A stretch of DNA of 64,000 nucleotides from Rhodospirillales bacterium (GTDB lineage: Bacteria > Pseudomonadota > Alphaproteobacteria > CACIAM-22H2), in assembly GCA_016794005.1 (NCBI GenBank), contig JAEUKY010000207.1, positions 17,630 through 81,629 of the forward strand, written 5' to 3'. The translations under genes and the position numbers were made by a program. The stretch's first letter is position 1, and every line of letters begins with the position of its first letter. The notes beneath the pieces were generated by a model that made no database searches, had not been told where the DNA came from, and worked only from the letters and a program-made list of their open reading frames with translations. This document shows positions 42,115 to 60,156 of this stretch, piece after piece.

Positions 42115-42123
42115 TGCAGAGTT

Positions 42124-43301: not shown

Positions 43302-43312
43302 GGCAGGGAAAA

Positions 43313-44724: not shown

Positions 44725-44735
44725 GGATCCACCGC

Positions 44736-46034
44736 ATGGCCCGCATCATCGGGGCGATCGCCGCCTCGCACACGCCGACGATCGGCTTTGCCTTCGACAA
44801 GAAGAAGCAGGACGACCCGGTCTGGGCGCCGATCTTCGAATCCTTCGCGCCCGTGCGCACGTGGATCGAGGCGAAGAAGCCCGACGCGTTCGTTTTCGTT
44901 TTCAACGACCACGTGACGTCGTTCTTCTTCGACCACTATTCAGCCTTCGCGCTGGGCATCGGCGAGCGCTACGCCGTCGCCGACGAGGGCGGAGGTCCGC
45001 GCGACCTGCCGCCGGTCGACGGACACACGCGGCTTGCCCAGCATATCGGCGCGTCGCTGGTCGCCGACGAGTTCGACATGTCCTTCTTCCAGGACCGCCC
45101 GCTCGACCACGGGTGCTTCTCGCCGCTGAGCATGATGATGGAGAGCAAGCCGAAATGGCCCGTTCCCATCGTCCCACTGCAGGTCGGCGTGCTGCAATTC
45201 CCGATCCCGTCGGCGTCGCGCTGCTTCCGCCTCGGCAAGGCGCTGCGCCGCGCGATCGAAAGCTATCCCGAGGACATCTCGGTCGCGATCGTGGCGACCG
45301 GCGGCCTTTCGCATCAGGTGCACGGCGAGCGCGCGGGCTTCAACAACACTCCGTGGGACATGCGCTTCCTCGACATGATCGAGAAGGATCCCGAGACGCT
45401 GGCGCGCATGACGCATGCAGAGTACGCCACGCTCGGCGGATTCGAGGGCGCCGAGGTCATCATGTGGCTGATCATGCGCGGCGCCCTTTCCGCCCGCGTG
45501 AACCGGATCCACCAGACCTACTACCTGCCCTCGATGGCGGGCATCGCGACTGCGATCTACGAGAACGCCGGCGAGCCGCCGCCGGATGCCGAGGCCGGTC
45601 GGCACCGCGCGCATGTCGGCCACCAGCTTGCCGGCGTGGAGGCGCTATCCGGCACCTACCCCTTCACGCTGGAGCGCAGCGTGAAGGGATACCGGATCAA
45701 CAAGTTCCTTCACGCACTGATCGCACCTGCCGTCCGGGCAAGGTTCCTCGCCGATCCGGAGACCTGCTTTGCCGAAGCCGGGCTTTCCGACGAGGAGCGC
45801 GACCTGATCCGGCGGCGCGACTGGCGCGGCCTCATCCGCTACGGCGCGATCTTCTTCATGCTCGAAAAGCTGGGCGCCGTCGTCGGCGTGTCGAACCTGC
45901 ACATCTATGCGGCCATGCGCGGGCAGACGCTGGAAGAGTTCCAGAAGACGCGCAACGCGCCGGGAGCACTCTATTCGGTCGCCGGCACCGACAAGGGCAA
46001 GACCGATTGGGCCGCATCGTCCGGCCGAACCTAG
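44736..46034 (+). CDS. galA: Fused LigB-LigA type extradiol dioxygenase, gallate dioxygenase-like
   Basis: Part of ORF 44091..46034, ATG at 44736 (MARIIGAIAASHTPTIGFAFD), 432 aa. LigB-like catalytic N-domain (FNDHVTSFFF, ATGGLSHQVHG) is fused to a LigA-like C-domain (YRINKFLHAL...RDWRGLIRYGAIFFMLEKL). Confidence 0.8.
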   Translation: MARIIGAIAASHTPTIGFAFDKKKQDDPVWAPIFESFAPVRTWIEAKKPDAFVFVFNDHVTSFFFDHYSAFALGIGERYAVADEGGGPRDLPPVDGHTRLAQHIGASLVADEFDMSFFQDRPLDHGCFSPLSMMMESKPKWPVPIVPLQVGVLQFPIPSASRCFRLGKALRRAIESYPEDISVAIVATGGLSHQVHGERAGFNNTPWDMRFLDMIEKDPETLARMTHAEYATLGGFEGAEVIMWLIMRGALSARVNRIHQTYYLPSMAGIATAIYENAGEPPPDAEAGRHRAHVGHQLAGVEALSGTYPFTLERSVKGYRINKFLHALIAPAVRARFLADPETCFAEAGLSDEERDLIRRRDWRGLIRYGAIFFMLEKLGAVVGVSNLHIYAAMRGQTLEEFQKTRNAPGALYSVAGTDKGKTDWAASSGRT

Positions 46035-47803
46035 GCCGGCGCCACGAAGTTGCACAGCAGCCGCAACGCGCCCAGCGTGCCGAACTCGATCTCGTTGTGG
46101 AGCGCCAGCGCCACATGCGTATGCCGGCCCTTCCCGAAGCGGCCGGAAAGCACGCTGCCGGCATGCGGTGCTTCGCCCGGATCGGTCACGCGCAACAGAG
46201 GCTCATAGGCCGGATCCCACGCGCTGGCGAAATAGAGGCCGCGTTCGCGCTGCCAGCCCCACCAATCGGCCGGCCCGATCCGGTTGGGAAAGTTCATCAG
46301 GGGATGATCGGGTATGGCGATCTCGACCGGGGCTCCGGGATCGCATGCGCGCCAGCGGATGCTCGGCCGGCCGATCTCGATGCGGGCAAGCGGCATCCGG
46401 TCCGGCAGCCAGCTCCCGCCCCCACGATGATACATCGTCACGAGATGCCCGCCCGCGCGGACGAAGTCGTGCAGCACCGCGACATTCGCGCACAGGTCGG
46501 CGCGCCGCTCGAACGCACGGATGCCGACAAGCACTGTCGTGAAACCGCCATGCGCGAGCGCGGCCGGATCGAGATCGCGCATGTCGACCACATCGATGCC
46601 GAGTGCGGCAATCCATTCCGCGATCGTGTCGAGACCGCCGCCCAGATAGGCGACGTGCGTACCCGTCGGCCGGGCGATCCCATTGCTCGGCACGTCGCGG
46701 ACGACCGAGGGTGCAGGCGGACGGATTGCCGGCATCGGACAGCGGCCTGAATCCTCCGCCGCGAGGCAGATCGCCGCTCGCAATTGCGCGCCCTTTCGCG
46801 CAAGCCGGCCGGCGAGCGGCTCCGGCGCGCGGATCGTCGCAAGAACCTTGCGTGCTTCTTCCAGATATCGGCGAACCGCCGCACGATCCGGCATGTCGGC
46901 TCGCGCCTGCTCGACGAGATCCTGCACCGCACCCAGTGCGGCAATCCCCGTCGCATCCGCCAGCTCGCGCAGCGTGGCGGGAAGCGATTGGCCGAGCCGG
47001 TTGGCAATGACGGTTGCACCATCGTTGCGCGCGACGAGCCGCAGCGAGACTTCGCGAGCGCCCGCCTCGATCCACCGCCCCATCTCCTGCGTGCGATGGC
47101 AGGCGCGCGACCACTCGCCGATCCGCGCGTACGGGACGCCGTTTGCCGGATCGCATTCGCCGGTATCGAATACGACATGCCCCGCCAGCGACGGCGTCTC
47201 GTCGTCGTACGATCCGTCGGCTCCCGACCAGGCCGGCTCGTAGAGAAGTGATGGAGCCCAGACGGCGTCGCCTGCAATACGGAACGCTTCCGCGGTCAGC
47301 CGCGAGATCGCCCGGTGGTGCCCGTGCTGGCCGCCGACGTCGCGAAACGTGGTGCACAGGATGTCGGGACGTACTCGCCGGATGCAGCGTACGAGGCGTT
47401 CGAGCGCGTGCGCGTGTCCCCAGCGGCGCAACGTGTCTTCGGCGCTCTTCGAGAATCCGAAATCGCGCAACGCTTCGTCGCCCGGCTCCGCCAGCCAATG
47501 TATCGAGATGCCGAGCCGGGCGGCGGCGGCCTCCATCTCGTCGGTCCGCAAGGCGCCGAGCGCCGCGTTCCGCTCCGGCCCCAGCGCGTTCTGCCCGCCC
47601 TCGCCGCGCGTGGCGCACGCATAGCCGACCGACACCGCGTGCCTTCGCACGAGCATCGCGAGCAGGCCGCTCGTCTCGTCGTCCGGGTGCGCACCGACCT
47701 GCAGGAACGACAGAACGCCCGGGAGGCCGCGAAGGGCAAGCTCCAGCCCCCAGGTGCGGTCCGCGGCCGCCTCGGCTTCCAGCCGCGACGCGTCGGCGCT
47801 CAT
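46031..47803 (-). CDS. PIG-L/LmbE-family deacetylase fused to a C-terminal alpha/beta domain (590 aa)
   Basis: 590-aa ORF. N-terminal LmbE motifs (VLSFLQVGAHPDDETSG, GGQHGHHRA). The C-terminal roughly 210 aa (THVAYLGGGLDTIAEWIAALGIDVV...HLVTMYH) tentatively resembles class-I GATase-like/ThuA-type folds. Confidence 0.8.
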   Translation of the reverse strand: MSADASRLEAEAAADRTWGLELALRGLPGVLSFLQVGAHPDDETSGLLAMLVRRHAVSVGYACATRGEGGQNALGPERNAALGALRTDEMEAAAARLGISIHWLAEPGDEALRDFGFSKSAEDTLRRWGHAHALERLVRCIRRVRPDILCTTFRDVGGQHGHHRAISRLTAEAFRIAGDAVWAPSLLYEPAWSGADGSYDDETPSLAGHVVFDTGECDPANGVPYARIGEWSRACHRTQEMGRWIEAGAREVSLRLVARNDGATVIANRLGQSLPATLRELADATGIAALGAVQDLVEQARADMPDRAAVRRYLEEARKVLATIRAPEPLAGRLARKGAQLRAAICLAAEDSGRCPMPAIRPPAPSVVRDVPSNGIARPTGTHVAYLGGGLDTIAEWIAALGIDVVDMRDLDPAALAHGGFTTVLVGIRAFERRADLCANVAVLHDFVRAGGHLVTMYHRGGGSWLPDRMPLARIEIGRPSIRWRACDPGAPVEIAIPDHPLMNFPNRIGPADWWGWQRERGLYFASAWDPAYEPLLRVTDPGEAPHAGSVLSGRFGKGRHTHVALALHNEIEFGTLGALRLLCNFVAPA

Positions 47804-48957
47804 GCGCGCGACATCGCCGCCCGCGTCGCCAAGTGCGGCGCTTCCCGGCCGTAGAGCGGCAGCGACGCGGCCCCGCGCGCGGCACTATAGGGGCCGCACT
47901 CGCCCTGCAGGACACGCGAGCTGGGCCTCGGGGCCAACGGCGGCGGTAGTTGGCCGAGCCGCGCGACGACGCCTTCGACGAGTTGCGGCGACAGCCCGGC
48001 GACGAGGACCGTATCGGGGTCGAAGAGGTTCTCGATCATGACGATGGCGTCAGCGAGCCGGCTTGCTGCACCGTCGAGCCAGTGCGCCAACGCCTTCGCA
48101 TCGACGCTCGCGTCGAGGGCCGATACGCCGAGATCGGCAAGTGCCGCCTCAAGCGAGACATAGCGTTCGAGACAGCCGCGCTGGCCGCAGAAACACGGCC
48201 GCCCGCCCGGCTCGATGACGACATGGCCGATCTCACCGGCGTTACCCGTCGCGCCGCGATAGAGGCGGCCATCGAGCACGAGGCCGAGCCCCAGACCCCG
48301 CCCCATATAGAGGCAGGCGACCCGCGCGAAACGGCGGCCGGCACCCAGCAGGTGCTCTCCAAGGGCCGCGGCGGCGGCATCGTTCTCGATCACGACGTCG
48401 TATCCCAGCGCTTCGGTCAGGACCGCCGCCGGATCGGCGAGTTCTTCCCATCCCGGCAACTCCGTGCTGCGCCGCCCGCCCGAAACGCCGCCGGCCGGCC
48501 ACGGTGCCACGATCCCCACGCCGACGATCGGCCCGGTGGTGCTGGTCGCGGCAAGTGCCGTGAAGCTCCGGATGACTTTCGGGAGCGTGCGCGCGACGGT
48601 CTGCGGATCGGCGGACGGCAGCGGCACCGTCTTCTCGCGCAATACCGCCCCCGCGAGATCGGCAAGCACGACGACCATCGCGTCGTGGCGCAGTTCGACC
48701 CCGATCGTCGTACCGCCGGTGGGATCGATGGCGAGGTCGAGGGGCGGCTGTCCGCGCCCACCGCGTCGCCGGCCGGCATTGCGCACGAGGCGGTCTCGCA
48801 GAAGTTCGTCTGCGATGTTCGTGACGCCCTGCGCCGACAGACCGGTAAGTCGCGCAAGATCGGCCCGGCTCAGCGTTCCGTGCCGGCGGAGCGCCTGCAG
48901 CACGACGCGCCGGTTGTGCTCGCGCGTGTCGTAGACGTTGGAAGGCAGGTCGCGCAT
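47800..48957 (-). CDS. ROK-family transcriptional regulator
   Basis: 385-aa ORF. N-terminal wHTH (RADLARLTGLSAQGVTNIADELLRDRLV). ROK zinc motif (GHVVIEPGGRPCFCGQRGCLE). The stop overlaps the start of the PIG-L gene (ATGA at 47800-47803). Confidence 0.9.
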   Translation of the reverse strand: MRDLPSNVYDTREHNRRVVLQALRRHGTLSRADLARLTGLSAQGVTNIADELLRDRLVRNAGRRRGGRGQPPLDLAIDPTGGTTIGVELRHDAMVVVLADLAGAVLREKTVPLPSADPQTVARTLPKVIRSFTALAATSTTGPIVGVGIVAPWPAGGVSGGRRSTELPGWEELADPAAVLTEALGYDVVIENDAAAAALGEHLLGAGRRFARVACLYMGRGLGLGLVLDGRLYRGATGNAGEIGHVVIEPGGRPCFCGQRGCLERYVSLEAALADLGVSALDASVDAKALAHWLDGAASRLADAIVMIENLFDPDTVLVAGLSPQLVEGVVARLGQLPPPLAPRPSSRVLQGECGPYSAARGAASLPLYGREAPHLATRAAMSRA

Positions 48958-48994
48958 GCTAGCAAGCCTACGAGGCGCCCGCGATTAGTTCAAC

Positions 48995-49057
48995 GGATTT
49001 GAGTTATTGACTTGGCTAGGCCCCCATGCACTACATAATCGAGGATTTACAGCTATT
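48995..49057 (+). promoter_or_regulatory. Imperfect direct repeats GGATTT..AG.TATT bracketing a weak promoter-like element
   Basis: GGATTTGAGTTATT (48995-49008) and GGATTTACAGCTATT (49043-49057). TTGACT (49007-49012) and TACATAAT (49032-49039) lie between them at a long 19-21 nt spacing. The region is the intergenic space between the ROK gene and the sugar SBP gene. Confidence 0.25.
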
Positions 49058-49105
49058 CGCCGTGGCGCGATGCGAACCGCCCGGCATAACGCGAGGGAGA
49101 TCGGA

Positions 49106-50362
49106 ATGCGGATTCTGAAGAGCCTTGCCGCGGCAGCGCTTCTCGCCGTCGGCTTCGCGGGCGGGGTCAAGGCCCAGTCCGTCGAGATCGAGTACTGGCA
49201 GTACACCTTCGAAACGCGCGTGCGCGCGATGGACGAGCTGATCAAGCGCTTCGAGGCCGCCAACCCCGGCATCAAGGTCAAGCACGTAAACTTCCCCTAC
49301 AACGACTATCGCACGAAGGTTTCGGCCGCGATGGCCGCCGGCCAGGGTCCGGACGTCGTCCAGCTCTTCTACGGATGGCTCGACGACTTCCACAACAGCA
49401 AGATCCTGCAGCCGCTGCCTGCCGCCGCCTTCCCGGCCGCGAAGATCGAGGCCGAGTACTTCCCGATGGTCCGCGAGATGAAGCGCGACGGTGCCTATTA
49501 TGCGCTTCCGACCGCGGTGCGTTCGCTTTCGGTCTTCTACAACACGCGCCTGATGAAGGAGGCCGGCCTCGATCCGGCGAAGCCGCCGGCCACGCTCGAC
49601 GCCCTTCTCGACGCGGCCAAGAAAATGACCAAGCGGGACGCGTCGGGCAACATCACGCAGGTCGGCATCGGTGCCGGCGTGGAATGGCAGGACCAGCATT
49701 GGTGGCGCGAGGTGCTCGTGCGCCAGTTCGGCGGTACGCCGTATTCGGCCGAGGGCAGGCAGGTCACGTACAACTCCGAGGCCGGCCTCAAGGCGCTGAC
49801 CTGGTACGTCGATATGTTCCGCACCCACAAGGTCACGGCGCGCAACTTCATGGACGAGCCGCAGGCCGCCTTCCGCGCCCAGCGTGCAGGACTGATGGTC
49901 GATGGCAATTTCCGCATCGGCGCGCTCGAACGCACCCGCGGGCTGGAATGGATCGTCGCCCCGCTGCCAAGCCACAACGGTATCCGTTCGAACTACGGCT
50001 CCTACTGGGTGAATGGCATCACGGCATCTTCGAAGGGCGCAAAACTCGACGCCGCGACGAAATTCCTCGCATTCGTGACGACTCCGGAGGCGATGCAGCA
50101 CTGGCTCGACGTCACCGGCGAGCTGCCGGCGCGCGAAGCGGCGGCATATTCGAAATCCGCGACCGAAAGTCCGATTTACGGTCCGTTCGTGGCCGGCCTC
50201 AAGGAAGCGCATGCCACGCGCTTCGTCGACGAGTCCGCCCAGCGCCAGTTGGTGATGGACGCGGTAAGCCGCATCCTTCTTGAGAACCAAGATCCGGCCG
50301 TATCGCTGAAGATCATGGCGGAAGCCGAGCAGAAGCTGCTCGACGGCTTCTACAAGAAGTGA
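49106..50362 (+). CDS. CUT1-type sugar ABC transporter substrate-binding protein
   Basis: ORF 49007..50362 trimmed to the ATG at 49106 after GAGGGAG. Sec signal (MRILKSLAAAALLAVGFAGGVKAQ). Family-1 SBP pattern. Confidence 0.9.
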   Translation: MRILKSLAAAALLAVGFAGGVKAQSVEIEYWQYTFETRVRAMDELIKRFEAANPGIKVKHVNFPYNDYRTKVSAAMAAGQGPDVVQLFYGWLDDFHNSKILQPLPAAAFPAAKIEAEYFPMVREMKRDGAYYALPTAVRSLSVFYNTRLMKEAGLDPAKPPATLDALLDAAKKMTKRDASGNITQVGIGAGVEWQDQHWWREVLVRQFGGTPYSAEGRQVTYNSEAGLKALTWYVDMFRTHKVTARNFMDEPQAAFRAQRAGLMVDGNFRIGALERTRGLEWIVAPLPSHNGIRSNYGSYWVNGITASSKGAKLDAATKFLAFVTTPEAMQHWLDVTGELPAREAAAYSKSATESPIYGPFVAGLKEAHATRFVDESAQRQLVMDAVSRILLENQDPAVSLKIMAEAEQKLLDGFYKK

Positions 50363-50369
50363 CGGAGAC

Positions 50370-50395
50370 GGCCCCGCGGATCGGTCCGCGGGGCC
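50370..50395 (+). terminator. Intercistronic perfect 10-bp stem-loop after the SBP gene
   Basis: GGCCCCGCGG (50370-50379) and CCGCGGGGCC (50386-50395), with a 6-nt loop. It starts 8 nt after the SBP stop and ends 13 nt before the permease ATG. Confidence 0.45.
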
Positions 50396-50408
50396 ATTCC
50401 GGACTGCG

Positions 50409-51302
50409 ATGAGCTGGTACGCGAACAGGACGATCGAGCAGAAGCGTGTCGTCTGGGCTTGGACGTTCCTTGCGGTTCCGCTCGCCTTCTACGTCCTCGT
50501 CCGCTTCTATCCGACACTCGAATCGTTCTACGTCTCGCTCCATTCCTGGCGCCTGATCGGCGAACGGCGCTGGGTCGGTCTCGACAACTATGTCCGCCTT
50601 GCGACCGATCCGGTATTCTGGAAGGTCTTCGCGAACACGTTCATCTACCTGATCGTCGGCACGCCACTTTCGATCGTGCTCTCCTTCGTCGTGGCCTATC
50701 AGCTCGATCGCGTGCGCTTCATGCACGGCTTCATCCGGGCGCTCTATTTCCTTCCGTTCCTGACGACGGCGGCGGCGATGGCGTGGGTCTGGCGCTGGTT
50801 CTACCAGCCGGTCCCGATCGGCGTGATCAACAACGCGCTCGCGAGCCTCGGCATCCCGCAGATCACGTTCCTCGCATCGACCACGAACGCGCTTCCGGCA
50901 ATCCTCGCGACCGCGATCTGGCACGGGCTGGGCTTCCAGGTGATCATCTTCATGGCCGGCCTGCGCGCGATCCCGACCAGCTATTACGAGGCGGCCCGCA
51001 TCGACGGCGTGACGGACTGGACGATCCTGCGTGAGATCACTATTCCGCTGATGCGGCCGACCGTCATCTTCCTGGTCGTGTTCTCGTCGATCGGATACCT
51101 GCGGATATTCGATCAGGTCTACAACATGACAACGAACGATCCGGGCGGTCCGCTGGATTCGACGAAGCCGCTCGTGCTGCTGATCTACCAGACCGCGTTC
51201 CGCTCCTACGAGCTTGGCTACGCAGCGGCGCAGACCGTGGTTCTGTTCGTCGTGCTGCTCGCCATTTCCCTCCTCCAGCTCCGCCTGATGAAGGATCGCT
51301 GA
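50409..51302 (+). CDS. CUT1-type sugar ABC transporter permease (MalF/UgpA-like)
   Basis: 297-aa ORF. Conserved loop (YYEAARIDGVTDWTILREITIPLMRPTVIFL). Confidence 0.9.
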   Translation: MSWYANRTIEQKRVVWAWTFLAVPLAFYVLVRFYPTLESFYVSLHSWRLIGERRWVGLDNYVRLATDPVFWKVFANTFIYLIVGTPLSIVLSFVVAYQLDRVRFMHGFIRALYFLPFLTTAAAMAWVWRWFYQPVPIGVINNALASLGIPQITFLASTTNALPAILATAIWHGLGFQVIIFMAGLRAIPTSYYEAARIDGVTDWTILREITIPLMRPTVIFLVVFSSIGYLRIFDQVYNMTTNDPGGPLDSTKPLVLLIYQTAFRSYELGYAAAQTVVLFVVLLAISLLQLRLMKDR

Positions 51303-51304
51303 CG

Positions 51305-52153
51305 ATGGCGACCGCACGGCCGCTCCCGGCATATCTCGCCGGAATCCGCCCCGGCCGCATCGTCGCGTGGACGCTGCTGGCGATCGGCGGCGTGCTGATG
51401 GTCACGCCTGTCTTCTACATGCTGATGACGTCGCTCAAGCTCCCGCACGAGGTCTACCAGCTTACCCTCATCCCGCGTGAGCCGACGCTGGAGAACTACT
51501 TCTACGTCCTGAAAGACGGCCGGTTCATGCGGTGGTTCATGAACTCGCTTCTCATCGCCACTATCGTGACGCTGTCGAACGTCTTCTTCGACAGCCTGGT
51601 CGGCTATGTGCTCGCGAAATTCACGTTCCGCGGCCGCTATGTCGTGTTCCTTGCGATCCTGTCGACGCTGATGATCCCGACCGAGATGCTCGTCATCCCC
51701 TGGTACATGATGTCGGCCGCGTTCGGCTGGCTCGACACGACATGGGGCATCATGTTCCCGGGCGTGATGACGGCCTTCGGCACGTTCCTGATGAAGCAGT
51801 TCTTCGAGACCGTCCCCGACGATTTCCTCGATGCCGCGCGCATCGACGGCCAGGGCGAGTTCGCGATCTGGTGGACGATCGCGATGCCGCTCGTCACGCC
51901 CGCACTTTCCGCGCTCGCAATTTTTGTCTTTCTCGGAAACTGGACGGCGTTCCTCTGGCCGCTGATCGTGACGACGTCGCCGAATCTCTACACGCTGCCG
52001 GTGGGCCTGACGACGTTCTCGGTCGAACAGCAGATCGACTGGGAACTGATCATGACGGGTGCGAGCCTCGCGACGATCCCCACGCTTCTCATCTTCCTGA
52101 TCTTCCAGCGCTACATCATCCGCGGCGTCGTCCTCGCCGGGCTGAAAGGATAA
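51305..52153 (+). CDS. CUT1-type sugar ABC transporter permease (MalG/UgpE-like)
   Basis: 282-aa ORF. Conserved loop (FLDAARIDGQGEFAIWWTIAMPLVTPALSAL). Confidence 0.9.
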   Translation: MATARPLPAYLAGIRPGRIVAWTLLAIGGVLMVTPVFYMLMTSLKLPHEVYQLTLIPREPTLENYFYVLKDGRFMRWFMNSLLIATIVTLSNVFFDSLVGYVLAKFTFRGRYVVFLAILSTLMIPTEMLVIPWYMMSAAFGWLDTTWGIMFPGVMTAFGTFLMKQFFETVPDDFLDAARIDGQGEFAIWWTIAMPLVTPALSALAIFVFLGNWTAFLWPLIVTTSPNLYTLPVGLTTFSVEQQIDWELIMTGASLATIPTLLIFLIFQRYIIRGVVLAGLKG

Positions 52154-52157
52154 TCCG

Positions 52158-53663
52158 ATGTCCGTTTCGCAAGCCGGTTCCGACGACCGGTTCCCCGCCC
52201 CCGTCTTCAAGGATACGGTGCTCGCACCGCTCTTCGAAGGGGCAAAGTCCACGTTCGTCGACGCATTCCGCCGCATCGATCGCGCGCACTGCGTCATGCT
52301 CCACGAGACCGGCATCCTGACGGACGCGCAGGCTGGCGCCATCGCGAAGGCGCTTGCCGACATCGAGAAGTCGCTCGACCTGAAATCGATCCCCTATACC
52401 GGCGAGGTCGAGGACCTCTTCTTCCTGATCGAGCACGCGCTGCGCGAGCGCCTCGATCCGGACGTCGCCGGCCGGCTCCATACAGGACGCAGCCGCAACG
52501 ACATCGACCACACGATCTTCAAGATCGTGCTGAAGGAGCGGATCGACACGCATCTTGCGAAGATGCGTGCACTTCTCGACACGACGATCGCCAAGGCGAC
52601 GGCGGAAACCGGAACGCTCGTCGTCGCCTACACGCACGGTCAGCCCGCACAGCCGACGACGTTCGGGCATTATCTGGCCGCCTATATCGAGATCCTTATC
52701 GCGGACATCGAGCGCCTCATCGCCGCGCGGGCCGTCGTCGACCAGAGCTCGATGGGTGCCGGAGCCATCACGACGACCGGATTCCCGCTGGATCGCGGCC
52801 GGATGGCCGAACTGCTCGGCTTCGCGCGCATTCGCCAGAACAGCTACGGATGCATCGCGGCGGCTGACTATGTGACCGCCCCCTATTCCGCCCTGCGCCT
52901 TTCGATGCTGCATCTCGGCCGCATCGTGCAGGATTTCCAGTACTGGTCCGGATTCGAGGTCGGCCAACTCCACGTGCCCGACGGCTTCGTGCAGATCTCG
53001 TCGATCATGCCGCAGAAACGCAACCCCGTGCCGATCGAGCACACGCGCCTGCTCGCGTCGCTTGCGGCCGGCCGCGCCGAGACCGCGGTTTCGATCGTGC
53101 ACAACACGCCGTTCACCGACATGAACGACATCGAAGGCGAGGTACAGGCCGCCTGCCACGCCGCCTTCGTCGATGCCGGTCGCGCCACCGACCTGCTGGC
53201 GGGCCTGATCCGCGCCGTGCGGATCAACGCCGCGCGCGTGTCGGCCAATCTCGACCGCAGCTGCGCCACGATCACCGAGCTTGCCGACAGCGTCGTACGC
53301 GAGGAAGGCCTTTCCTTCCGGCAGGCGCACGAGATCGCCGCCGCGACCGCGCGCGCCGTCGTCGCGGCCGGCTCCTCGCTCGCCGCCAGCTACGCGCCGT
53401 TCGCCGAGGCGTTCCGGCACGCCGCCGGACGACCTGCGAAGATGGACGAGGCCCGCTTCCGCACCGTCGTGTCGCCCGAGAATTTCGTCGCCGTGCGCAA
53501 ACGCCCGGGCGGCCCGGCGCCCGAGCCGATGCGCGAGGCCCTTGCCGGATACCGCGCACAGGCCGCGGCATTCTCGAAGCAGGCATCCGACATCGCGAAA
53601 CGCGAAAGCGCCCAAGCCGAAGCGCTCGACACGACCTTCAACCGACTTGCCGCGCGCGGATAG
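52158..53663 (+). CDS. Argininosuccinate lyase / fumarate-lyase superfamily protein (substrate unknown)
   Basis: 501-aa ORF, 4 nt after the permease gene. All three conserved superfamily regions are intact: HTGRSRNDIDHT, YTHGQPAQPTTFGH, ISSIMPQKRNPVPIEH. Confidence 0.85.
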   Translation: MSVSQAGSDDRFPAPVFKDTVLAPLFEGAKSTFVDAFRRIDRAHCVMLHETGILTDAQAGAIAKALADIEKSLDLKSIPYTGEVEDLFFLIEHALRERLDPDVAGRLHTGRSRNDIDHTIFKIVLKERIDTHLAKMRALLDTTIAKATAETGTLVVAYTHGQPAQPTTFGHYLAAYIEILIADIERLIAARAVVDQSSMGAGAITTTGFPLDRGRMAELLGFARIRQNSYGCIAAADYVTAPYSALRLSMLHLGRIVQDFQYWSGFEVGQLHVPDGFVQISSIMPQKRNPVPIEHTRLLASLAAGRAETAVSIVHNTPFTDMNDIEGEVQAACHAAFVDAGRATDLLAGLIRAVRINAARVSANLDRSCATITELADSVVREEGLSFRQAHEIAAATARAVVAAGSSLAASYAPFAEAFRHAAGRPAKMDEARFRTVVSPENFVAVRKRPGGPAPEPMREALAGYRAQAAAFSKQASDIAKRESAQAEALDTTFNRLAARG

Positions 53664-53673
53664 GACCCGACGA

Positions 53674-54750
53674 ATGGCCAAAATCACGCTCAAGAAGGTC
53701 GTCAAGCGCTACGGCAAGGTCGAGGCCGTCAAGGGGATCGACCTTGCGGTCGCCAGCGGCGAGTTCGTCGTGCTCGTCGGGCCGTCCGGCTGCGGAAAGT
53801 CGACGACGCTGCGCATGATCGCGGGACTGGAGGACGTCACAGAAGGCGAAGTCTCGATCGGCGGGCGGATCGTCAATCGCGTCGAACCGAAGGACCGTGA
53901 CATCGCGATGGTCTTCCAGAACTATGCGATCTATCCGCACATGACGGTGGCGAAGAACATCGGCTTCGGCCTGCGCTCGCGGGCGATGTCGGTCGTCGAG
54001 AAGGAACGGCGCGTCGCGGACATCGCCGGAAAGCTCGGCTTGACAGACCTGATGCACCGCCGCCCGTCCGAACTGTCCGGGGGCCAGCGCCAGCGCGTGG
54101 CGATCGGCCGCGCGATGGTGCGCGATCCCGCCGTGTTCCTGTTCGACGAGCCGCTTTCGAATCTCGACGCGCAGCTTCGCGCGCAGATGCGCCTCGAGAT
54201 CAAGAAGCTCCACCAGACGCTGGGCCGCACGATCGTGTTCGTGACCCACGACCAGGTCGAGGCGATGACGCTGGCCGACCGGATCGTGATCATGAGGGAC
54301 GGCGAGATCCTGCAGACGGGCACGCCCGACGAGATCTACAGGCGCCCCGTCGACATGTTCGTCGCGCGGTTCATCGGATCGCCGTCGATGAACATGCTTG
54401 CGGCCCGCAGCGTCGCTGGCCGCATCGAGATCGACGGGTTCGCATCACTCGCGTCGTCCGGACCGGTTCCGGACGAGATCACCGTCGGTGTCCGGCCGGA
54501 CGACCTGCGCGTCCTGGCGGACGGCGCCGTGGCCCCGATCCGTGCCGAAGCCGTGGTCAAGGTCGTCGAGCCGCTGGGACACGACGCGCTCGTCTACGGG
54601 CAGATCGGCCCGCACGAGGTCGTCGCCAAATGCGCGGACCGCGTGCTGCCCCGACCGGGCGACCGCGTCCGCCTCGGCGCCGATCCGGCCAATCTCCACC
54701 TGTTCGAGACGACCGGCGGGCGCACGATCCGCCACGGATTGCCGGCGTGA
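53674..54750 (+). CDS. CUT1-type sugar ABC transporter ATP-binding protein (UgpC/MalK/MsiK-like)
   Basis: Part of ORF 53281..54750, ATG at 53674. LVGPSGCGKST, LSGGQRQRVAIGRAM, FLFDEPLSNLD. C-terminal TOBE-like domain. Confidence 0.9.
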   Translation: MAKITLKKVVKRYGKVEAVKGIDLAVASGEFVVLVGPSGCGKSTTLRMIAGLEDVTEGEVSIGGRIVNRVEPKDRDIAMVFQNYAIYPHMTVAKNIGFGLRSRAMSVVEKERRVADIAGKLGLTDLMHRRPSELSGGQRQRVAIGRAMVRDPAVFLFDEPLSNLDAQLRAQMRLEIKKLHQTLGRTIVFVTHDQVEAMTLADRIVIMRDGEILQTGTPDEIYRRPVDMFVARFIGSPSMNMLAARSVAGRIEIDGFASLASSGPVPDEITVGVRPDDLRVLADGAVAPIRAEAVVKVVEPLGHDALVYGQIGPHEVVAKCADRVLPRPGDRVRLGADPANLHLFETTGGRTIRHGLPA

Positions 54751-55697
54751 AGACGAAAGGCACCATCGTCTGCGTCGGCCGTCTCTACGCCGACATCGTG
54801 ATGACGGGCCTCAAGGCGATGCCGCAGATCGGGCGCGAGCATTATGCCGACGCCGTCGTCGTGACGCCCGGCGGTGGCGCGCTGATCTCGGCGGCATTCC
54901 TTCGCAGTCTCGGCCGGAAGGTGGAACTCGCGGCCACGCTCGGGACCGACCCGGTCTCGTGCACGATCGAGCCGCTCCTGAGGAAATCGGGCATCGGGCT
55001 TTCGCTGCTTGAACGCTTCGACGGCGGCCCCCAGCTGACGGTGGCGCTCGCCGTCGGCGACGACCGCTCCTTTGTCACGCACAGGGCCGGCCCGGCGGTT
55101 CCGGAAAGCCTTGCCGGCCATCTGCGCCGGGGCGGCGTGCGGCATCTGCACGTCGCCGAACTCGCCACGCTGCTCGATGCGCGATGGCTGATCGACGTCG
55201 CGCGCGAATGCGCGATCACGATCTCGCTCGACGTGGCCTGGGACGATGCCGCGATCCGGCTGCCGGGCGCGCTGGCGCTGGCGCGCGCGGTCGACCTGCT
55301 GATCCCCAACGCGCCCGAGGCGGCCGCACTGACCGGGCTGCCGATCGACCGGCCGGACCTCCTGCTCCAGATGCTCGCGACGAGCGGGCCGACGGTCGTC
55401 CTGAAACAGGGGCGGCAGGGGGCGATCTGGTCGGACGGCATGCGGCAGTTCGCGTCGAAGGCCTTGGCCACCGACGTCGTCGACGCAACCGGTGCCGGCG
55501 ACGCCTTCGCCGCCGGATTCATCGACGCGTGGATCGACGGCGCTTCGCCGGCAACATGCCTTGCCCGCGCAACGGCCTGCGGCGCATTCGCGGTTTCGAA
55601 TGTCGGCGGCGCGCGTACGCTGCCGACCCGTACCGAGATCCTCGATCTCGAAACGCAGGTCGCCGTCCGTCCTTTCGCCGGCGCGCAGGCGGACTGA
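54747..55697 (+). CDS. PfkB-family carbohydrate kinase
   Basis: Part of ORF 54630..55697. GTG at 54747 overlaps the ATPase stop (GTGA). PfkB signature VVDATGAGDAFAAGF. Confidence 0.85.
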   Translation: MKTKGTIVCVGRLYADIVMTGLKAMPQIGREHYADAVVVTPGGGALISAAFLRSLGRKVELAATLGTDPVSCTIEPLLRKSGIGLSLLERFDGGPQLTVALAVGDDRSFVTHRAGPAVPESLAGHLRRGGVRHLHVAELATLLDARWLIDVARECAITISLDVAWDDAAIRLPGALALARAVDLLIPNAPEAAALTGLPIDRPDLLLQMLATSGPTVVLKQGRQGAIWSDGMRQFASKALATDVVDATGAGDAFAAGFIDAWIDGASPATCLARATACGAFAVSNVGGARTLPTRTEILDLETQVAVRPFAGAQAD

Positions 55698-55706
55698 TCC
55701 GCCGGA

Positions 55707-56726
55707 TCAGAGGGTTTCGGTCACCTTCGAAAGGTGCGGCGGACGATCGGGATCGAATCCCATCGTCCGGGCAGTCCGCTCGATCATCAGGTATGCCGGC
55801 CCCAGCATCGATATCGCATCGCATGCGGGATCGTCGTCGCCGATCCAGGGCAGGTCGGTCAGCGGGCCGCCGGCGAGAAACACGGGTACGCGCGCTGCGC
55901 GCAGGTCGCGGACAAGGGTGTCGACGCCGCCTGCGGTCGGATCGCCCAGCCGCAACGCGAGGACGGGCGTGCGCGTCGTCACGGCGGCGCGCGGACCATG
56001 GAGAAGTTCGGCCGAACTGAAGGCGAGCGCGGGCAGCCGCAGCGTCTCGGCGCATTTCAGCGCGATCTCGCGCGCGGGGCCGAGCCCGTAGCCGCGCGAC
56101 GTGACATAGACGCACGGCGCGCCCGCAAGCGCTTCGCCGGCACGCCCCCATTCGAGTTGCAATGCCGATGCCGCGCGGCCGGGCACGCGGGCGAGCGCGT
56201 CCAGTAACCGGGAATCGCCGGCAAGCGCCGCCACGAACTCGGCGGCTGCGAACATCGATGCCGCGACCGACTTCGTCGCAGCGACGGATTTCTCGCGACC
56301 GGCCCGGAGGGCGATCACGTGCTCGGCCGCTTTCGCGACCGGCGAATCCTCTTCGTTGACGAGCGCGACGGTCCGCGCACCCGCAGCCCGCGCGGCTTTC
56401 GTGGCCGCGACGAGATCTGGACTCTTCCCCGACTGCGAGATCACGACGAAGAGCGCGCCGTCGAGCTTGAGGTCGGCGCCGTAGGCCGTGACGACCGATG
56501 GGGCGGTTTCCGAAACAGGAATGCCGAGGCGGGTTTCGACGAGATAGCGCATATGCGCTGCCGCATGTCCCGAACTGCCGCGCCCGCAGAGCACGGCGAC
56601 CGGCACCGTCCGCAGGTCGATGCGACCGGCCAGTTCGGCAAACGATGCGCGACGAGCGACGATATCCGCAAGAACGCGTGGAATTTCGGCGGCCTCCGCC
56701 GCCATGGCCGAACTGCTGCTAGTCAT
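55707..56726 (-). CDS. Double-SIS-domain protein, GlmS-isomerase-like (GlcN-6-P deaminase NagB-II or FrlB/FraB-type deglycase)
   Basis: 339-aa ORF (alternative start at Met8, 56705). SIS motifs (VLCGRGSSGHAA, VVISQSGKSPD). GlmS-like C-terminal tail (DRPPHLSKVTETL). Confidence 0.85.
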   Translation of the reverse strand: MTSSSSAMAAEAAEIPRVLADIVARRASFAELAGRIDLRTVPVAVLCGRGSSGHAAAHMRYLVETRLGIPVSETAPSVVTAYGADLKLDGALFVVISQSGKSPDLVAATKAARAAGARTVALVNEEDSPVAKAAEHVIALRAGREKSVAATKSVAASMFAAAEFVAALAGDSRLLDALARVPGRAASALQLEWGRAGEALAGAPCVYVTSRGYGLGPAREIALKCAETLRLPALAFSSAELLHGPRAAVTTRTPVLALRLGDPTAGGVDTLVRDLRAARVPVFLAGGPLTDLPWIGDDDPACDAISMLGPAYLMIERTARTMGFDPDRPPHLSKVTETL

Positions 56727-56856: not shown

Positions 56857-56862
56857 ATGTGT

Positions 56863-58038
56863 ATGAAGATCGCCCGCATCGACGTTGTCCCGCTGGAAGC
56901 CACGTTCGCCCGTCAATATGGCGGGATCGACAAGGTTCCGCCGCAACTCCTTCGTCCGGCTGCACATTTCCGAAAGATCGTGCGGGCTGGCCAGTACGCG
57001 ACGCTGGCGTTCGTGCGCGCCGAGGACGGCACGACCGGTGTCGGCGAGGCCTTCGGCCTGCCCCACCCTGGGCCGACCGCGATGCTGATCGAACGGGTCA
57101 TCGCACCCGGCCTGATCGGTCTGCCGATCGGCGAGCCGGCACAGATGCTGGCCGAATACAGCGAATACTTCGCCGCGATGGGCCACGGTCGCGGGATGCC
57201 GGCGGAAGCGATGAGCGCCATCGACATGGCGCTCTGGGATCTCAAGGCGAAGCTTGCCGGCAAACCGCTGTGCGAGCTGCTCGGCGGCACGCCCGGCCCC
57301 GTGCGCCTCTATGCGAGCCCCGTCCCGTTCCTGCCCACGCTCGACGCGTCCGCCGAAGCGGCAAAGGCGCTGGTGGCGCAGGGCTACAAGGCGATCAAGC
57401 TGAAAGTCGGCCGCGGCGCGGGCATCGATCTCGACCATATCGAGGCGGTGCGCGCCGCGATCGGTCCCGACATCGGCCTGATGCTCGACGTCAATTGCGG
57501 CTACGACGAAGCGACCGCGATCGAAGTCGGCAAGAAGCTGTCGCGCCATTCGGTCACCTGGTTCGAGGAACCGATCCCGCCGGGCGACCCGGCCGCACTC
57601 GCGCGCGTGCGCGCCAAGTCCACCGCGCAGATCGCGGCCGGCGAGAACGAGTTCGCCATGCACGATTTCGCGGCACTGGCCGAAGCAAAGGCTGTCGACG
57701 TGCTGATGCCGAACATCTCGCGCGCCGGCGGAGTCAGCGGGATGATGGCGCTGGGCCGGCTCTGCGCGAAGCACGGCATCAAGCTGGGGCCGCACGGCGT
57801 GGGAACCTGCGTCGCCGTCTCGGCCGCACTGCACACCTGCCGCGCGATGGAAGGTTTCGGCATCTACGAGGCCAATCGTCTGCTCAATCCGCTGCGCGAC
57901 GAGATGCCCAGGCAGAAGCCCGTCCTTGCAGATGGCGCCCTCCTCACGCCGACCGGTCCGGGTCACGGCGGCGATCCGCGCCCCGACGTGATGGACAGCT
58001 ACCGCCTCTCGATCTCCATCGCTTCGAGCGCCGCCTGA
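56863..58038 (+). CDS. Enolase-superfamily enzyme (mandelate racemase / muconate lactonizing enzyme family), second member
   Basis: ORF 56857..58038. ATG at 56863 (MKIARIDVVPLE) is preferred because the predicted -10 element ends at 56856. Metal-ligand contexts MLDVNCG, WFEEP, IAAGENE. Confidence 0.85.
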   Translation: MKIARIDVVPLEATFARQYGGIDKVPPQLLRPAAHFRKIVRAGQYATLAFVRAEDGTTGVGEAFGLPHPGPTAMLIERVIAPGLIGLPIGEPAQMLAEYSEYFAAMGHGRGMPAEAMSAIDMALWDLKAKLAGKPLCELLGGTPGPVRLYASPVPFLPTLDASAEAAKALVAQGYKAIKLKVGRGAGIDLDHIEAVRAAIGPDIGLMLDVNCGYDEATAIEVGKKLSRHSVTWFEEPIPPGDPAALARVRAKSTAQIAAGENEFAMHDFAALAEAKAVDVLMPNISRAGGVSGMMALGRLCAKHGIKLGPHGVGTCVAVSAALHTCRAMEGFGIYEANRLLNPLRDEMPRQKPVLADGALLTPTGPGHGGDPRPDVMDSYRLSISIASSAA

Positions 58039-58040
58039 AG

Positions 58041-58775
58041 ATGGACGTCGCCTCGATCAAGGCTCCGGACGAACTGGGTGAACTCGTCGGCCTGCCCGGC
58101 GAGACGCTGACGGCGACGCTCAAACGCACGATCCTGGAGATGATCCTTTTCGGCTATTTCGCCGACGAGGCACGTCTCTATCCGCACGAACTCGCCGAGC
58201 GTTTCGGCGTCAGCCAGACGCCGGTCCGCGAAGCGCTGATGCAGCTCTCCAGCGAAGGGCTGATCGAGGCGACGCCGCGACGCGGCTACCACATCAAGAC
58301 GCCGACAGCCGACCAGGTCACCGATCTGTGGCAGGTGCGCTGCGGTCTCGAGACGACGGCGGCCGAACGCGTGATCGCGCGGCTGGCTGCCGGCGAACTC
58401 TCCGATGCGGATCTGGCGCCGCTCGAAGCCCTCCAGCGCCGGCGCGATACGCTCGGTACGCGCATGACGACCAAGGAACACATCGAAACGAATTCCGCTT
58501 TCCACCGCGCGATCGTCGAGCTCAGCGGCAACCGTCTGCTCATCGCCGTTTTCGGTTCGATCCAGCAGCAGCTGATTGCCGCCTGGGTCCAGCGCGGGAT
58601 CGACTCGTGGCGCGCAAGGCTGACCGACGACGCGGCCGAACATCACGCCATCATGGACGCGCTGAAATCGCGCGACGTCGAGAAATGCCGAACGGTGCTG
58701 GCCAAGCATGTCGGCCGCTCGCTCGGCGGTGCGCTCGCCGATCTCGAGTTCAAACGCGCCGCAGCAAGTACCTGA
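58041..58775 (+). CDS. GntR-family transcriptional regulator (FadR/FCD subfamily)
   Basis: Part of ORF 56859..58775. ATG at 58041, 2 nt after the enolase stop. wHTH (LYPHELAERFGVSQTPVREALMQLSSEGLIE) plus an all-helical FCD-like C-domain. Confidence 0.9.
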   Translation: MDVASIKAPDELGELVGLPGETLTATLKRTILEMILFGYFADEARLYPHELAERFGVSQTPVREALMQLSSEGLIEATPRRGYHIKTPTADQVTDLWQVRCGLETTAAERVIARLAAGELSDADLAPLEALQRRRDTLGTRMTTKEHIETNSAFHRAIVELSGNRLLIAVFGSIQQQLIAAWVQRGIDSWRARLTDDAAEHHAIMDALKSRDVEKCRTVLAKHVGRSLGGALADLEFKRAAAST

Positions 58776-58811
58776 ACCGAAGGACCGGAAATCCGGCAAA
58801 GGGAGGAAACC

Positions 58812-60116
58812 ATGGAAATCTCGAAGACGCTTAGAGGCGCCTTGCTCGGTCTTGCGACATTCGTCGCCGGGCTCGCCGTGACCGCCGCCGAAGCGCAGAC
58901 GATCCGCATGTGGACGTTCCTCAATCCGGCCGGAAACGCGCCGCGCGAGAAAGCGCTCGCCGAGATGATCCGGAAGTTCGAAAGCGCCAATCCCGGCGTC
59001 AAAATCTCGGTCGAGCCGCAGGTCTGGGACCAGATGACGCCGAAGTTCCTCGCGGCTCATCGCGCCGGAAACGCGCCGGACATCGTCTGGGTCGTGACCG
59101 ACCTGCTCGGCGACGCGCTGAAGACCGGATCGCTTGCCGATCTCGGCGAACTGTTCGTCAACAAGTGGCCGGCCGCCGCGCGCGACGAGCGCAAGGACGG
59201 CTACTGGTCGCGCTGCGCGCAGGGCAACAGGGTTCACTGCCTGTTCCACTCACGTAACTACTACGGCGTCATCTACCGCACCGATTTCCTGAAGGAAGCC
59301 GGCGTCGACCCCGCGAAGCTGTCGACATGGCCCGCCTTCATCGAAGCGGCCAAGAAGCTGACGGTCAAGGATGCGTCCGGCAACGTCACGCGCTGGGGCT
59401 TCGGCCAGCAGTTCAGCGAGGACCGCGCGGACTCGCAGATGATGACTTCGCTGATGCTGTCCCGCCAAGGCGACCTGTTCGACGCCAAGGGCGGCGCAAA
59501 GTGGGCCAACGCGACGGGCGCGGAAGCGCTGAAGCTTCAAACCGACATGGTCACCGTGCACGGCGTCACGCCGCGCCAGGCCGTGACGTGGAGCGCCGAA
59601 GACCTCTACGAGCAGTTCGCCGCCGGGCGCATCGCGATGTTCACCGGGGCGGTCGTGCGCATCTCGACCATGCAGGCCAAGGTCGGCAGCGACAATGTCG
59701 GCTTCATGATCTGGCCTGGCATCGACGGCAAGCCGCATTCGCCGGCCGTGATGGCGGGCTGGGCGGTCGGCGTCTGGTCGGGCGGCAAGAACAAGGCGAT
59801 GGCCGGGAAGTTCCTCGAGTACATGTCGACCGGCGAATCTGACAAGCTGTGGGTCGAGGTCGGCGGCCAGCTTCCCGGAGCACCGTCCACGCTCGCGAGC
59901 ATGAAGGCCTTCACCGATCTGCCGGCCAACGCCTACTTGACGACCGCCGCTCTCGGCGTGGCGAAGTATGGCTGGATCCCTTCGGTCGAGTACGGCGTTG
60001 GCGGCTATCGCCAGGCGCTCAACAAAGCGGCGCAGGACGTCATCGTCGGCAATGTCGACCCGATGGCGGCTCTCGTCGCGGCCGAGAAGCGCTTCAACCA
60101 GCAGAACAACCGCTAG
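58812..60116 (+). CDS. CUT1-type sugar ABC transporter substrate-binding protein (second system)
   Basis: 434-aa ORF. Sec signal (MEISKTLRGALLGLATFVAGLAVTAAEAQ). Family-1 SBP pattern. Confidence 0.9.
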   Translation: MEISKTLRGALLGLATFVAGLAVTAAEAQTIRMWTFLNPAGNAPREKALAEMIRKFESANPGVKISVEPQVWDQMTPKFLAAHRAGNAPDIVWVVTDLLGDALKTGSLADLGELFVNKWPAAARDERKDGYWSRCAQGNRVHCLFHSRNYYGVIYRTDFLKEAGVDPAKLSTWPAFIEAAKKLTVKDASGNVTRWGFGQQFSEDRADSQMMTSLMLSRQGDLFDAKGGAKWANATGAEALKLQTDMVTVHGVTPRQAVTWSAEDLYEQFAAGRIAMFTGAVVRISTMQAKVGSDNVGFMIWPGIDGKPHSPAVMAGWAVGVWSGGKNKAMAGKFLEYMSTGESDKLWVEVGGQLPGAPSTLASMKAFTDLPANAYLTTAALGVAKYGWIPSVEYGVGGYRQALNKAAQDVIVGNVDPMAALVAAEKRFNQQNNR

Positions 60117-60156
60117 AATGGACGGCGTGCGCGCGTACCGCATCGGATAGAGACAC

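Follow-up and report, generated by a model that had tools for sequence, protein, structure and literature searches.

An ArgH-like lyase in a conserved transporter operon marks a candidate amino-sugar catabolic module in Alphaproteobacteria, Bacillus and Deinococcus

Introduction

Argininosuccinate lyase (ArgH, EC 4.3.2.1; Escherichia coli b3960, Thermus thermophilus 2E9F) and ethylenediamine disuccinate (EDDS) lyase are the nearest characterised relatives of a 501-amino-acid (aa) lyase encoded in a 64,000-nucleotide (nt) stretch of a Rhodospirillales bacterium (contig JAEUKY010000207.1, positions 17,630 to 81,629; hereafter the window). The gene lies inside the operon of a CUT1 ATP-binding cassette (ABC) importer, among genes for a PIG-L fusion protein, a ROK regulator, a PfkB kinase and a double-SIS protein, and was singled out in an earlier reading made from the letters of the DNA alone (the sequence-only reading). 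The locus is read here as a variant of known amino-sugar catabolic systems whose proposed lyase step would be without precedent.

The window lyase shares with ArgH the fold and the Lyase_1 and ASL_C2 domain pair, and the catalytic Ser loop, His and Lys/Asn carboxylate clamp are all in place. Unlike ArgH, it lacks the N-terminal LWGGRF/S..FD and has ~40 extra C-terminal residues, and its clade occupies operons and plasmids, whereas canonical argH lies in a tlpA-argH-lysA context. EDDS lyase (Chelativorans sp. BNC1, PDB 6G3D), PRK06705 and XcbC/XcbD are, as predicted for the window lyase, neofunctionalised ArgH-like proteins of ~500 aa. PRK06705-type proteins even have its VQxSSIMPQKRNPVxxEH and HNxPFxDxxD motifs, but their genes neighbour a nucleoside hydrolase and a PanF-like symporter and not PIG-L and CUT1 genes, and EDDS lyase falls into a different motif group (AGTSSIMPQKKNP). 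The clade of the window lyase has no characterised member.

Three amino-sugar systems resemble the remainder of the locus. In the archaeal chitin route of Thermococcus and Pyrococcus (the PIG-L deacetylase Dac, GlmA, a glucosamine (GlcN) kinase and the SIS deaminase GlmD), deacetylation likewise precedes phosphorylation and is followed by a kinase and an SIS-type deaminase, and chitobiose deacetylases are among the best structural matches of the window PIG-L protein; there, however, a glycoside hydrolase (GH) frees the sugar, whereas most loci described here have no glycosidase and hold a lyase in a conserved place. Sinorhizobium meliloti SM_b21216-SM_b21221 is a glucosamine ABC system with the GlcN kinase SM_b21217 (10.1101/2024.04.15.589591; PMC4961836). 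It is also an amino-sugar CUT1 operon with catabolic genes between the permease and ATPase genes, but no lyase has been reported in it, and S. meliloti plasmids have no homologue of the window PfkB at E<=1e-20. FrlB/FrlD and FraB/FraD likewise combine a PfkB kinase, a double-SIS enzyme and a transporter, but frl and fra loci have neither lyase nor PIG-L, and the window SIS protein is NagB-II-like and can be replaced by classical NagB.

Two further pathways bear on the lyase and PIG-L pair. The breakdown of S-(2-succino)cysteine employs a class-I lyase, 2SL, which removes the succino group in a catabolic pathway with a deacetylase (PMC9706529); this is a precedent for the enzyme combination. 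BshB and Bca are PIG-L enzymes that act on N-acetylglucosamine (GlcNAc)-malate or bacillithiol conjugates. Unlike the present locus, neither pathway includes a sugar transporter, kinase or deaminase, and BshB is a single-domain protein of ~230 aa. Literature searches (on the gene combination, on bacillithiol catabolism, and on LmbE with argH) found no description of such a module, in agreement with the sequence-only reading, which knew of no pathway of this composition.

Organisation of the locus

The layout of the window was read from an open reading frame (ORF) listing, translation and profile searches (Pfam, NCBIfam), which gave the following features.

46031-47803 (-): ThuA-like-fused PIG-L (LmbE-type) deacetylase/amidase, predicted to be cytoplasmic, 590 aa (Pfam PIG-L, 81 bits)
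47800-48957 (-): ROK-family transcriptional regulator, winged helix-turn-helix plus ROK (Pfam ROK, 129 bits, with MarR_2/HTH_24)
48958-49105 (no strand): divergent intergenic control region, with a sigma-70-like site at 49012-49039 (+) by consensus match only
49106-50362 (+): CUT1 periplasmic solute-binding protein (SBP) with signal peptide (SBP_bac_1/8)
50409-51302 (+): ABC permease 1, UgpA/MalF-like (profile matches)
51305-52153 (+): ABC permease 2, UgpE/MalG-like (profile matches)
52158-53663 (+): ArgH-like class-I (fumarate-lyase superfamily) lyase, 501 aa, Lyase_1 plus ASL_C2
53674-54750 (+): ABC ATPase of UgpC/MalK type with TOBE domain (NF008653, 475 bits)
54747-55697 (+): PfkB-family sugar kinase with GTG start (PfkB, 141 bits; GAGD motif)
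55707-56726 (-): double-SIS protein, candidate NagB-II-type glucosamine-6-phosphate (GlcN-6-P) deaminase (NF046059 and PDB 8eol matches)

A full CUT1 importer set is therefore present (SBP_bac_1, two BPD_transp_1 permeases and a MalK/UgpC ATPase with TOBE), and its parts are Ugp-like by profile. The lyase gene is separated from permease 2 by 4 nt (52154-52157) and from the ATPase gene by 10 nt (53664-53673); ORF, profile and alignment work bore out these gaps, the gene order, the 501-aa lyase at 52158-53663 and its three signature regions, all of which the sequence-only reading had noted. The GTG start of the kinase gene overlaps the ATPase stop by 4 nt. The ROK and PIG-L genes are divergent from the transporter operon, with a 4-nt overlap at the start of the PIG-L gene, and the double-SIS gene is convergent with it, forming its own transcription unit with a promoter-like site at 56867-56838. 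A terminator scan found no site above chance inside the operon, and an Rfam scan of the locus found no riboswitch, glmS element or other RNA element. Small palindromes were noted, and promoter/terminator and palindrome scans were uninformative. The window PIG-L protein is 100% identical to that of a 'Rhodospirillales bacterium' metagenome-assembled genome (MAG), and the closest genomes are those of Tagaea spp.

Identity of the lyase

Membership of the fumarate-lyase superfamily is evident from the Pfam Lyase_1 match (136 bits) and from the three catalytic signature regions RSRND, AYTHGQPAQP and SSIMPQKRNP, which include the Ser loop, the catalytic His and the Lys/Asn and are intact, together with a downstream Glu, and at least 95% conserved in the clade. 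On the argH model TIGR00838 the window lyase scores 290.7 bits, above the cut-off of 279.5 by 11 bits, and its orthologues and paralogues score 307-352 bits, against 717.3 bits for E. coli ArgH. The cut-off is so low that the whole paralogue clade (291-352 bits) passes it, and all orthologues, on dozens of plasmids and genomes, are therefore named argH automatically by the NCBI annotation pipeline PGAP, with an arginine-biosynthesis Gene Ontology term. The identity of the window lyase with ArgH is 27.5% for the E. coli and 32.7% for the Azospirillum enzyme; these two are 47% identical to each other.

In alignment, five ArgH-specific motifs that both E. coli and Azospirillum ArgH retain are replaced in the window lyase: S..FD by T....L, EDIH by EDLF, SDRD by AAAD, NPD by NPV, and LAY(N/S)KDMQEDK by FTDMNDIEGEV. 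The replacement motif HNTPFTDMNDsEGE is itself at least 95% conserved among 117 clade members. From work on duck delta-2 crystallin, we take the replaced motif positions to be those that contact the arginine moiety; the replaced residues presumably correspond to R238, T281, D293, Y323, K325, Q328 and K331 in duck delta-2 crystallin numbering. The lyase is thus predicted to be a neofunctionalised ArgH paralogue and not an argininosuccinate lyase.

That it is a genuine argininosuccinate lyase, second or only, placed in a transporter operon by chance is hardly credible. The intact catalytic residues and the 11-bit excess over the TIGR00838 cut-off, on which the PGAP name rests, would fit this explanation, but a score of 291 bits against 717 for true ArgH, the replacement of approximately nine conserved ArgH active-site positions, the plasmid-borne and patchy distribution of the orthologues and an operon position that is fixed over orders and phyla all argue against it. 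In addition, the canonical 467-aa enzyme shows at least 89% conservation from one Rhizobiaceae genus to another and is mostly encoded on large replicons (3.4-6 Mb) or contigs; the paralogue, by contrast, is ~60% conserved and plasmid-borne. Canonical argH of Azospirillum, the one canonical alphaproteobacterial locus fetched, lies in the order tlpA-argH-lysA, and that of E. coli in an arg cluster, and lyase orthologues of 52-64% identity are carried by 27 alphaproteobacterial plasmids. Some strains of genera in which canonical ArgH is ubiquitous carry the paralogue; a search from the canonical Shinella ArgH with look-ups of cluster members recovered no strain with both. The view of the sequence-only reading that the lyase is a non-ArgH paralogue tied to the transporter is upheld by the scores, the motifs and the gene positions (30 of 31 loci, below). 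In Alphaproteobacteria, Deinococcus and Bacillus, hundreds of genes that bear the name argH through automatic annotation almost certainly do not encode ArgH, and metabolic reconstructions are corrupted by them.

The best sequence relatives in the PDB are T. thermophilus ArgH 2e9f (194 bits) and EDDS lyase (156-159 bits), and XcbC is matched at 189 bits. By its motifs, VQxSSIMPQKRNPVxxEH and HNxPFxDxxD, the window lyase belongs to a group (A) that also includes NCBIfam PRK06705, proteins of Deinococcus and one from a Bacillus plasmid. An exhaustive search of representatives found more than 150 clusters at 50% identity of ~500-aa ArgH-like proteins above 205 bits, mostly uncharacterised.

Besides archaeal-type true ArgH, these ~500-aa proteins fall into at least two large motif groups, nearly all of whose members are uncharacterised: group A, with VQxSSIMPQKRNPV and HNxPFxD, and group B, which is EDDS-lyase-like, with AGTSSIMPQKKNP and KGxPFxHxRD. 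A chromosome-size record of Bacillus sp. N5-665 holds canonical argH together with the distantly related PRK06705-type 'argininosuccinate lyase' of the B. cereus group, which scores 1120 bits on the PRK06705 model and whose neighbours (L041 5157-11385) are a PanF-like Na+ symporter, a RihC-like nucleoside hydrolase and two unknown proteins, suggesting another uncharacterised sugar-linked pathway for a succino compound.

Conservation of the module

A scan of genome collections yielded 34 loci, 33 with a usable lyase match and 31 with enough flanking sequence to place the lyase. The lyase lies immediately downstream of permease 2 in 30 of the 31, and before the ATPase gene where the contig continues, at identities from 94% down to 48% and across Rhodospirillales, Hyphomicrobiales, Rhodobacterales, Kordiimonadaceae and Emcibacteraceae. 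The complete Tagaea chromosome OZ257249.1 carries an orthologue at 94%. Given this constancy, the arrangement of lyase and transporter is no chance juxtaposition. The PIG-L fusion gene is divergently adjacent to the transporter in 24 of the 26 survey loci with sufficient upstream sequence and in all six loci fetched separately; 22 of 22 PLSDB plasmids with a long PIG-L homologue also carry the lyase within ~7 kb, and look-ups started from PIG-L arrive at the same gene cluster. Other partners are less frequent (ROK regulator in ~15 loci, PfkB kinase in 9, SIS gene in 3). The conserved core is therefore the transporter and lyase, then the PIG-L fusion, with kinase and SIS facultative. SBP orthologues are 50-60% identical on the 27 alphaproteobacterial plasmids and 44-46% on eight Deinococcus plasmids and one Thermus plasmid.

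The sequence-only reading had asked whether the lyase is co-conserved with its neighbours: this holds for the transporter and PIG-L, but not for the kinase and SIS genes. Its proposal that kinase and SIS protein are the hallmark partners did not survive, as fewer than half of the loci have the kinase, which belongs to one of three families, and an SIS or NagB gene is adjacent in just a few lineages. The facultative kinase and SIS genes are nevertheless replaced by non-orthologous genes, which argues for a functional link and not against one.

Shinella and Bosea plasmids carry just a LacI-type regulator, the transporter and the lyase, indicating that transporter and lyase form the minimal unit. 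A Bacillus sp. F19 plasmid carries a ROK regulator, an ABC system of another family, a creatininase-family amidohydrolase, the lyase (40% identity), a BadF/BcrAD-type kinase, a second ROK gene and a full-length homologue of the long PIG-L fusion (34% identity, E 1e-144). On Deinococcus plasmids, an orthologous SBP (44-46% identity) lies beside a lyase of the same motif group (35% identity), and plasmid 1 of D. deserti has a single operon in the order ROK-lyase (35%)-SBP (46%)-permease-permease-PIG-L-PfkB. The module thus recurs in three phyla, through Alphaproteobacteria, Bacillus and Deinococcus.

Kordiimonadaceae and Emcibacteraceae loci have lineage-specific neighbours (an alpha/beta hydrolase, MacB, a DEAD helicase and an ornithine cyclodeaminase), whose presence was put down to synteny alone. 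In two Tagaea genomes (L003 3-3707, L005) an extra SBP_bac_6-type ABC system (binding protein, ATPase and fused permease) lies beside PIG-L. This is the transporter type of the Bacillus sp. F19 module (L039 4169-8196), and the binding proteins are 24% identical (E 8e-29).

The PIG-L fusion protein

The most conserved partner outside the transporter operon belongs to the PIG-L family (PF02585) by profile score (81 bits), motifs and fold. An AlphaFold2 model built with 54 homologues has a mean predicted local distance difference test (pLDDT) score of 88.8. In Foldseek searches its N-terminal domain matches MshB (E 2.6e-8), then chitobiose deacetylases, GalB, BC1534, teicoplanin deacetylases and BshB, and its C-terminal domain matches the ThuA-like protein 1t0b and the GH42 middle domain. 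Both structure and profile thus place the PIG-L domain nearest to enzymes that deacetylate GlcNAc glycosides (MshB, Mca/BshB and chitobiose deacetylase); the 277-aa PIG-L protein of D. deserti likewise scores best on the MshB, Mca and BshB models. The AHPDDE and H-x-x-H motifs are invariant, with H38, D40, D41, E42, H159, H161 and H162 among the unvarying residues. The QHGHHRA motif of the window protein aligns with the second His motif of LnmX and chitobiose deacetylase, for which we take the family consensus to be HPDH.

The window protein is a short form of 590 aa, most other genomes having one of ~800 aa. It is without a middle region of ~215 aa of the Aminobacter form, which in some homologues carries a NEW3/NPCBM-associated domain.

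Within the ThuA-like domain (46031-47200, residues ~380-590), R459, R482, R484, D512, W516, E519, R520, Y523, H560 and H562 are invariant, which suggests a second binding or catalytic site and not a passive oligomerisation domain. A gene for an EamA/DMT-family membrane transporter adjoins PIG-L in five Rhizobiales and Rhodobacterales loci (L029, L035, L037, L038, L043). It is co-directional with PIG-L in the four that have gene calls and was seen only alongside PIG-L; the transporter may export the product released by the PIG-L enzyme.

Kinase, deaminase and the end of the pathway

The window kinase has the PfkB fold and the GXGD motif (DATGAGDAF) and reaches no equivalog cut-off. Its plasmid homologues at E<=1e-20 were found solely in the same clusters, and it is presumed to be a GlcN kinase from a cluster-specific clade. 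The SIS protein matches PDB 8eol, the NagB-II of Shewanella, over residues 4-338 (E 9e-51) and scores 249.6 bits on the NagB-II model NF046059 (cut-off 430), in line with the amino-sugar catabolic locus proposed in the sequence-only reading.

Variant loci point the same way. The Roseomonas locus has a ROK regulator and an SBP-permease-permease-lyase-ATPase-ROK kinase-SIS operon, and its SIS protein reaches 313 bits on NF046059. In Paroceanicella, with a GH9 gene near the regulator, the order is SBP-permease-permease-lyase-ATPase-ROK protein-classical nagB, and the NagB scores 242.1 on TIGR00502 (cut-off 236.9). Neither operon includes a deacetylase. Wenxinia has a ROK kinase instead of PfkB, and a Roseobacter locus (L029) has a linked SIS gene. 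Across loci, three kinase families (PfkB, ROK and BadF) interchange, as do two types of GlcN-6-P deaminase, the NagB-II SIS type (Tagaea, Roseobacter, Roseomonas) and classical NagB (Paroceanicella). Such swaps, involving two unrelated deaminase folds, are strong evidence that the predicted pathway ends in GlcN -> GlcN-6-P -> fructose-6-phosphate.

These exchanges also bear on a fructosamine (Amadori) route of the FrlBD/FraBD kind, the other branch put forward in the sequence-only reading, in which the lyase would cleave fructosyl-aspartate, PfkB would phosphorylate the fructosamine and the SIS protein would deglycate it. The window does contain the PfkB and double-SIS pair, and the kinase has a weak match to the fructoselysine 6-kinase model (51.6 bits, cut-off 247). 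However, the SIS protein is NagB-II-like (250 bits on NF046059) and scores only 26.8 bits on the FrlB/FraB deglycase model NF008481 (cut-off 430); classical NagB stands in for it in Paroceanicella, which points to GlcN-6-P. Kinase and SIS are, moreover, the least conserved parts of the module, deglycases of the FraB/FrlB type make a lyase superfluous, and PIG-L would have no role. For these reasons the Amadori route is very improbable.

GH genes occur at the regulator or PIG-L side of two loci, GH9 in Paroceanicella (L052 1207-3576) and GH3 with a PA14 domain in Wenxinia (L037 1-2204), which hints that the natural substrate sometimes arrives within a larger glycan.

The proposed pathway and its substrate

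On balance, we lean towards the locus being a catabolic module for an imported, probably anionic conjugate of GlcN or GlcNAc that is N- or O-linked to C2 of succinate. The lyase fixed in the transporter operon, the deacetylase of GlcNAc-glycoside type and the GlcN-specific downstream steps lead to this reading. The lyase keeps the fumarate-side chemistry while its other half-site is remodelled and acidic, and the 2-substituted succinate group is on the best reading of the aspartyl or malyl type. In the proposed pathway, inferred at every step, the CUT1 system would import the conjugate and the cytoplasmic PIG-L/ThuA-like fusion would remove the N-acyl group from the GlcNAc moiety. The lyase would then, by the beta-elimination of its superfamily, yield fumarate and the free amino sugar. 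A sugar kinase (PfkB in the window) would form GlcN-6-P, which the NagB-II-type SIS enzyme would convert to fructose-6-phosphate and ammonia, and the ROK protein would regulate both divergent operons. On NCBIfam Mlc/NagC models the ROK protein scores ~120 bits, far under the cut-off. The PDB homologues of the SBP suggested no ligand, all being too distant (best E 7e-23, maltose/acarbose-type binders). N-acetylmuramic acid, chitobiose and GlcNAc-Asn were rejected as substrates by chemical reasoning, as they have no second carboxylate positioned beta to the leaving group, which the superfamily mechanism requires. The module (transporter, lyase, PIG-L fusion, kinase and deaminase) is a tractable target for a new lyase specificity and for an unrecognised environmental amino-sugar nutrient.

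Several observations weigh against this reading. The PIG-L fold also hosts the hydratase GalB, so deacetylation by the fusion is not guaranteed, and the ThuA-like domain has many invariant Arg, His, Glu and Trp residues. PIG-L, kinase and deaminase are each missing from some loci, making the order of steps and the need for deacetylation uncertain, and the SIS and ROK proteins both fall under NCBIfam equivalog cut-offs. We know of no widely occurring natural N-succino-glucosamine. Finally, lyases in MAGs of Solibacteraceae (Acidobacteria) are 78-80% identical to the window's and have no transporter or PIG-L gene nearby; the gene (L006 9908-11506; L045-L047) begins 21 nt after a gene for a GSDH-type sugar dehydrogenase and otherwise stands alone, so that co-localisation is not universal. 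The Solibacteraceae lyase is closer to the window's than Rhizobiales orthologues are, and so looks like a recent acquisition by horizontal transfer.

The leading candidate for the conjugate, put forward tentatively, is the bacillithiol core GlcNAc-alpha-1-O-L-malate or GlcN-malate, or bacillithiol itself. The PIG-L fusion would act like BshB or Bca, removing an acetyl or cysteinyl group, and the lyase would beta-eliminate at the malyl C2-O to give fumarate and GlcN. To our knowledge, GlcNAc-malate is the sole well-known natural conjugate of GlcNAc with a C4-dicarboxylate joined at C2; it is a substrate of PIG-L enzymes (BshB). The PIG-L partners of the lyase score best on the MshB, Mca and BshB models and structurally on MshB and BshB, the transporter parts resemble Ugp, an anion-type system, and the module is present in Bacillus and Deinococcus, which make bacillithiol. 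The ArgH-like branch already includes the C-O eliminating XcbC (189 bits), and 2SL cleaves C-S in a pathway where it likewise acts alongside a deacetylase (PMC9706529). The EamA/DMT exporter gene follows PIG-L in five loci, and export of cysteine is conceivable; the literature search turned up no catabolic route for bacillithiol. All of this evidence is circumstantial, however. ArgH and EDDS lyase, the nearest relatives to have been characterised, cleave C-N bonds, in bacillithiol producers a GlcN-malate lyase would work against biosynthesis, the functions of the EamA family are highly diverse, and loci without PIG-L need a separate explanation.

More tentatively still, the locus could represent an unrecognised scavenging pathway for bacillithiol or its GlcNAc/GlcN-malate core in which an ArgH-like enzyme splits a glycosidic bond without hydrolysis, by beta-elimination of the malyl aglycone as fumarate. 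If true, this would extend the fumarate-lyase superfamily by a reaction type and give a major bacterial low-molecular-weight thiol its first catabolic route. With the bacillithiol core as substrate, the module would show recycling of a major thiol cofactor in soils and oceans and reveal a non-hydrolytic cleavage of a glycoside.

The main alternative, which appears unlikely, is an N-substituted aspartate of an amino sugar, such as the Heyns-type N-(2-deoxy-D-glucos-2-yl)-L-aspartate or an N-glycosyl-aspartate, which C-N cleavage would convert to fumarate and GlcN or a glycosylamine. This is near the idea of the sequence-only reading, relies on the reaction that ArgH and EDDS lyase, the closest relatives with a known function, carry out, and accounts for the Roseomonas and Paroceanicella operons, where lyase, kinase and GlcN-6-P deaminase occur with no deacetylase. 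It leaves PIG-L, the most conserved partner, without a role, however, and we know of no abundant natural source of such compounds that spans marine and soil habitats.

Neighbouring genes

To the left of the PIG-L fusion, at 41218-46034 (+), lies a gene cluster of the gallate/protocatechuate meta-cleavage type.

41218-42114 (+): LysR regulator
42210-43301 (+): PrpF-family isomerase
43313-44029 (+): small PIG-L protein of 238 aa, GalB-hydratase-like
44026-44724 (+): RraA-like aldolase
44736-46034 (+): LigB/LigA dioxygenase fusion

With this 238-aa protein, the window holds two unrelated PIG-L-fold genes ~2 kb apart.

To the right of the SIS gene, 56857-61014 (+) encodes an MR_MLE (enolase-superfamily) enzyme, a GntR regulator and a second CUT1 transporter.

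58812-60116 (+): SBP of the second CUT1 transporter
60157-61014 (+): permease of the second CUT1 transporter

The MR_MLE and GntR genes were excluded from the module as they are conserved in just part of the genus; together with the second CUT1 genes they travel with the locus solely in the closest Tagaea genome (L002) and probably constitute a separate sugar-acid system.

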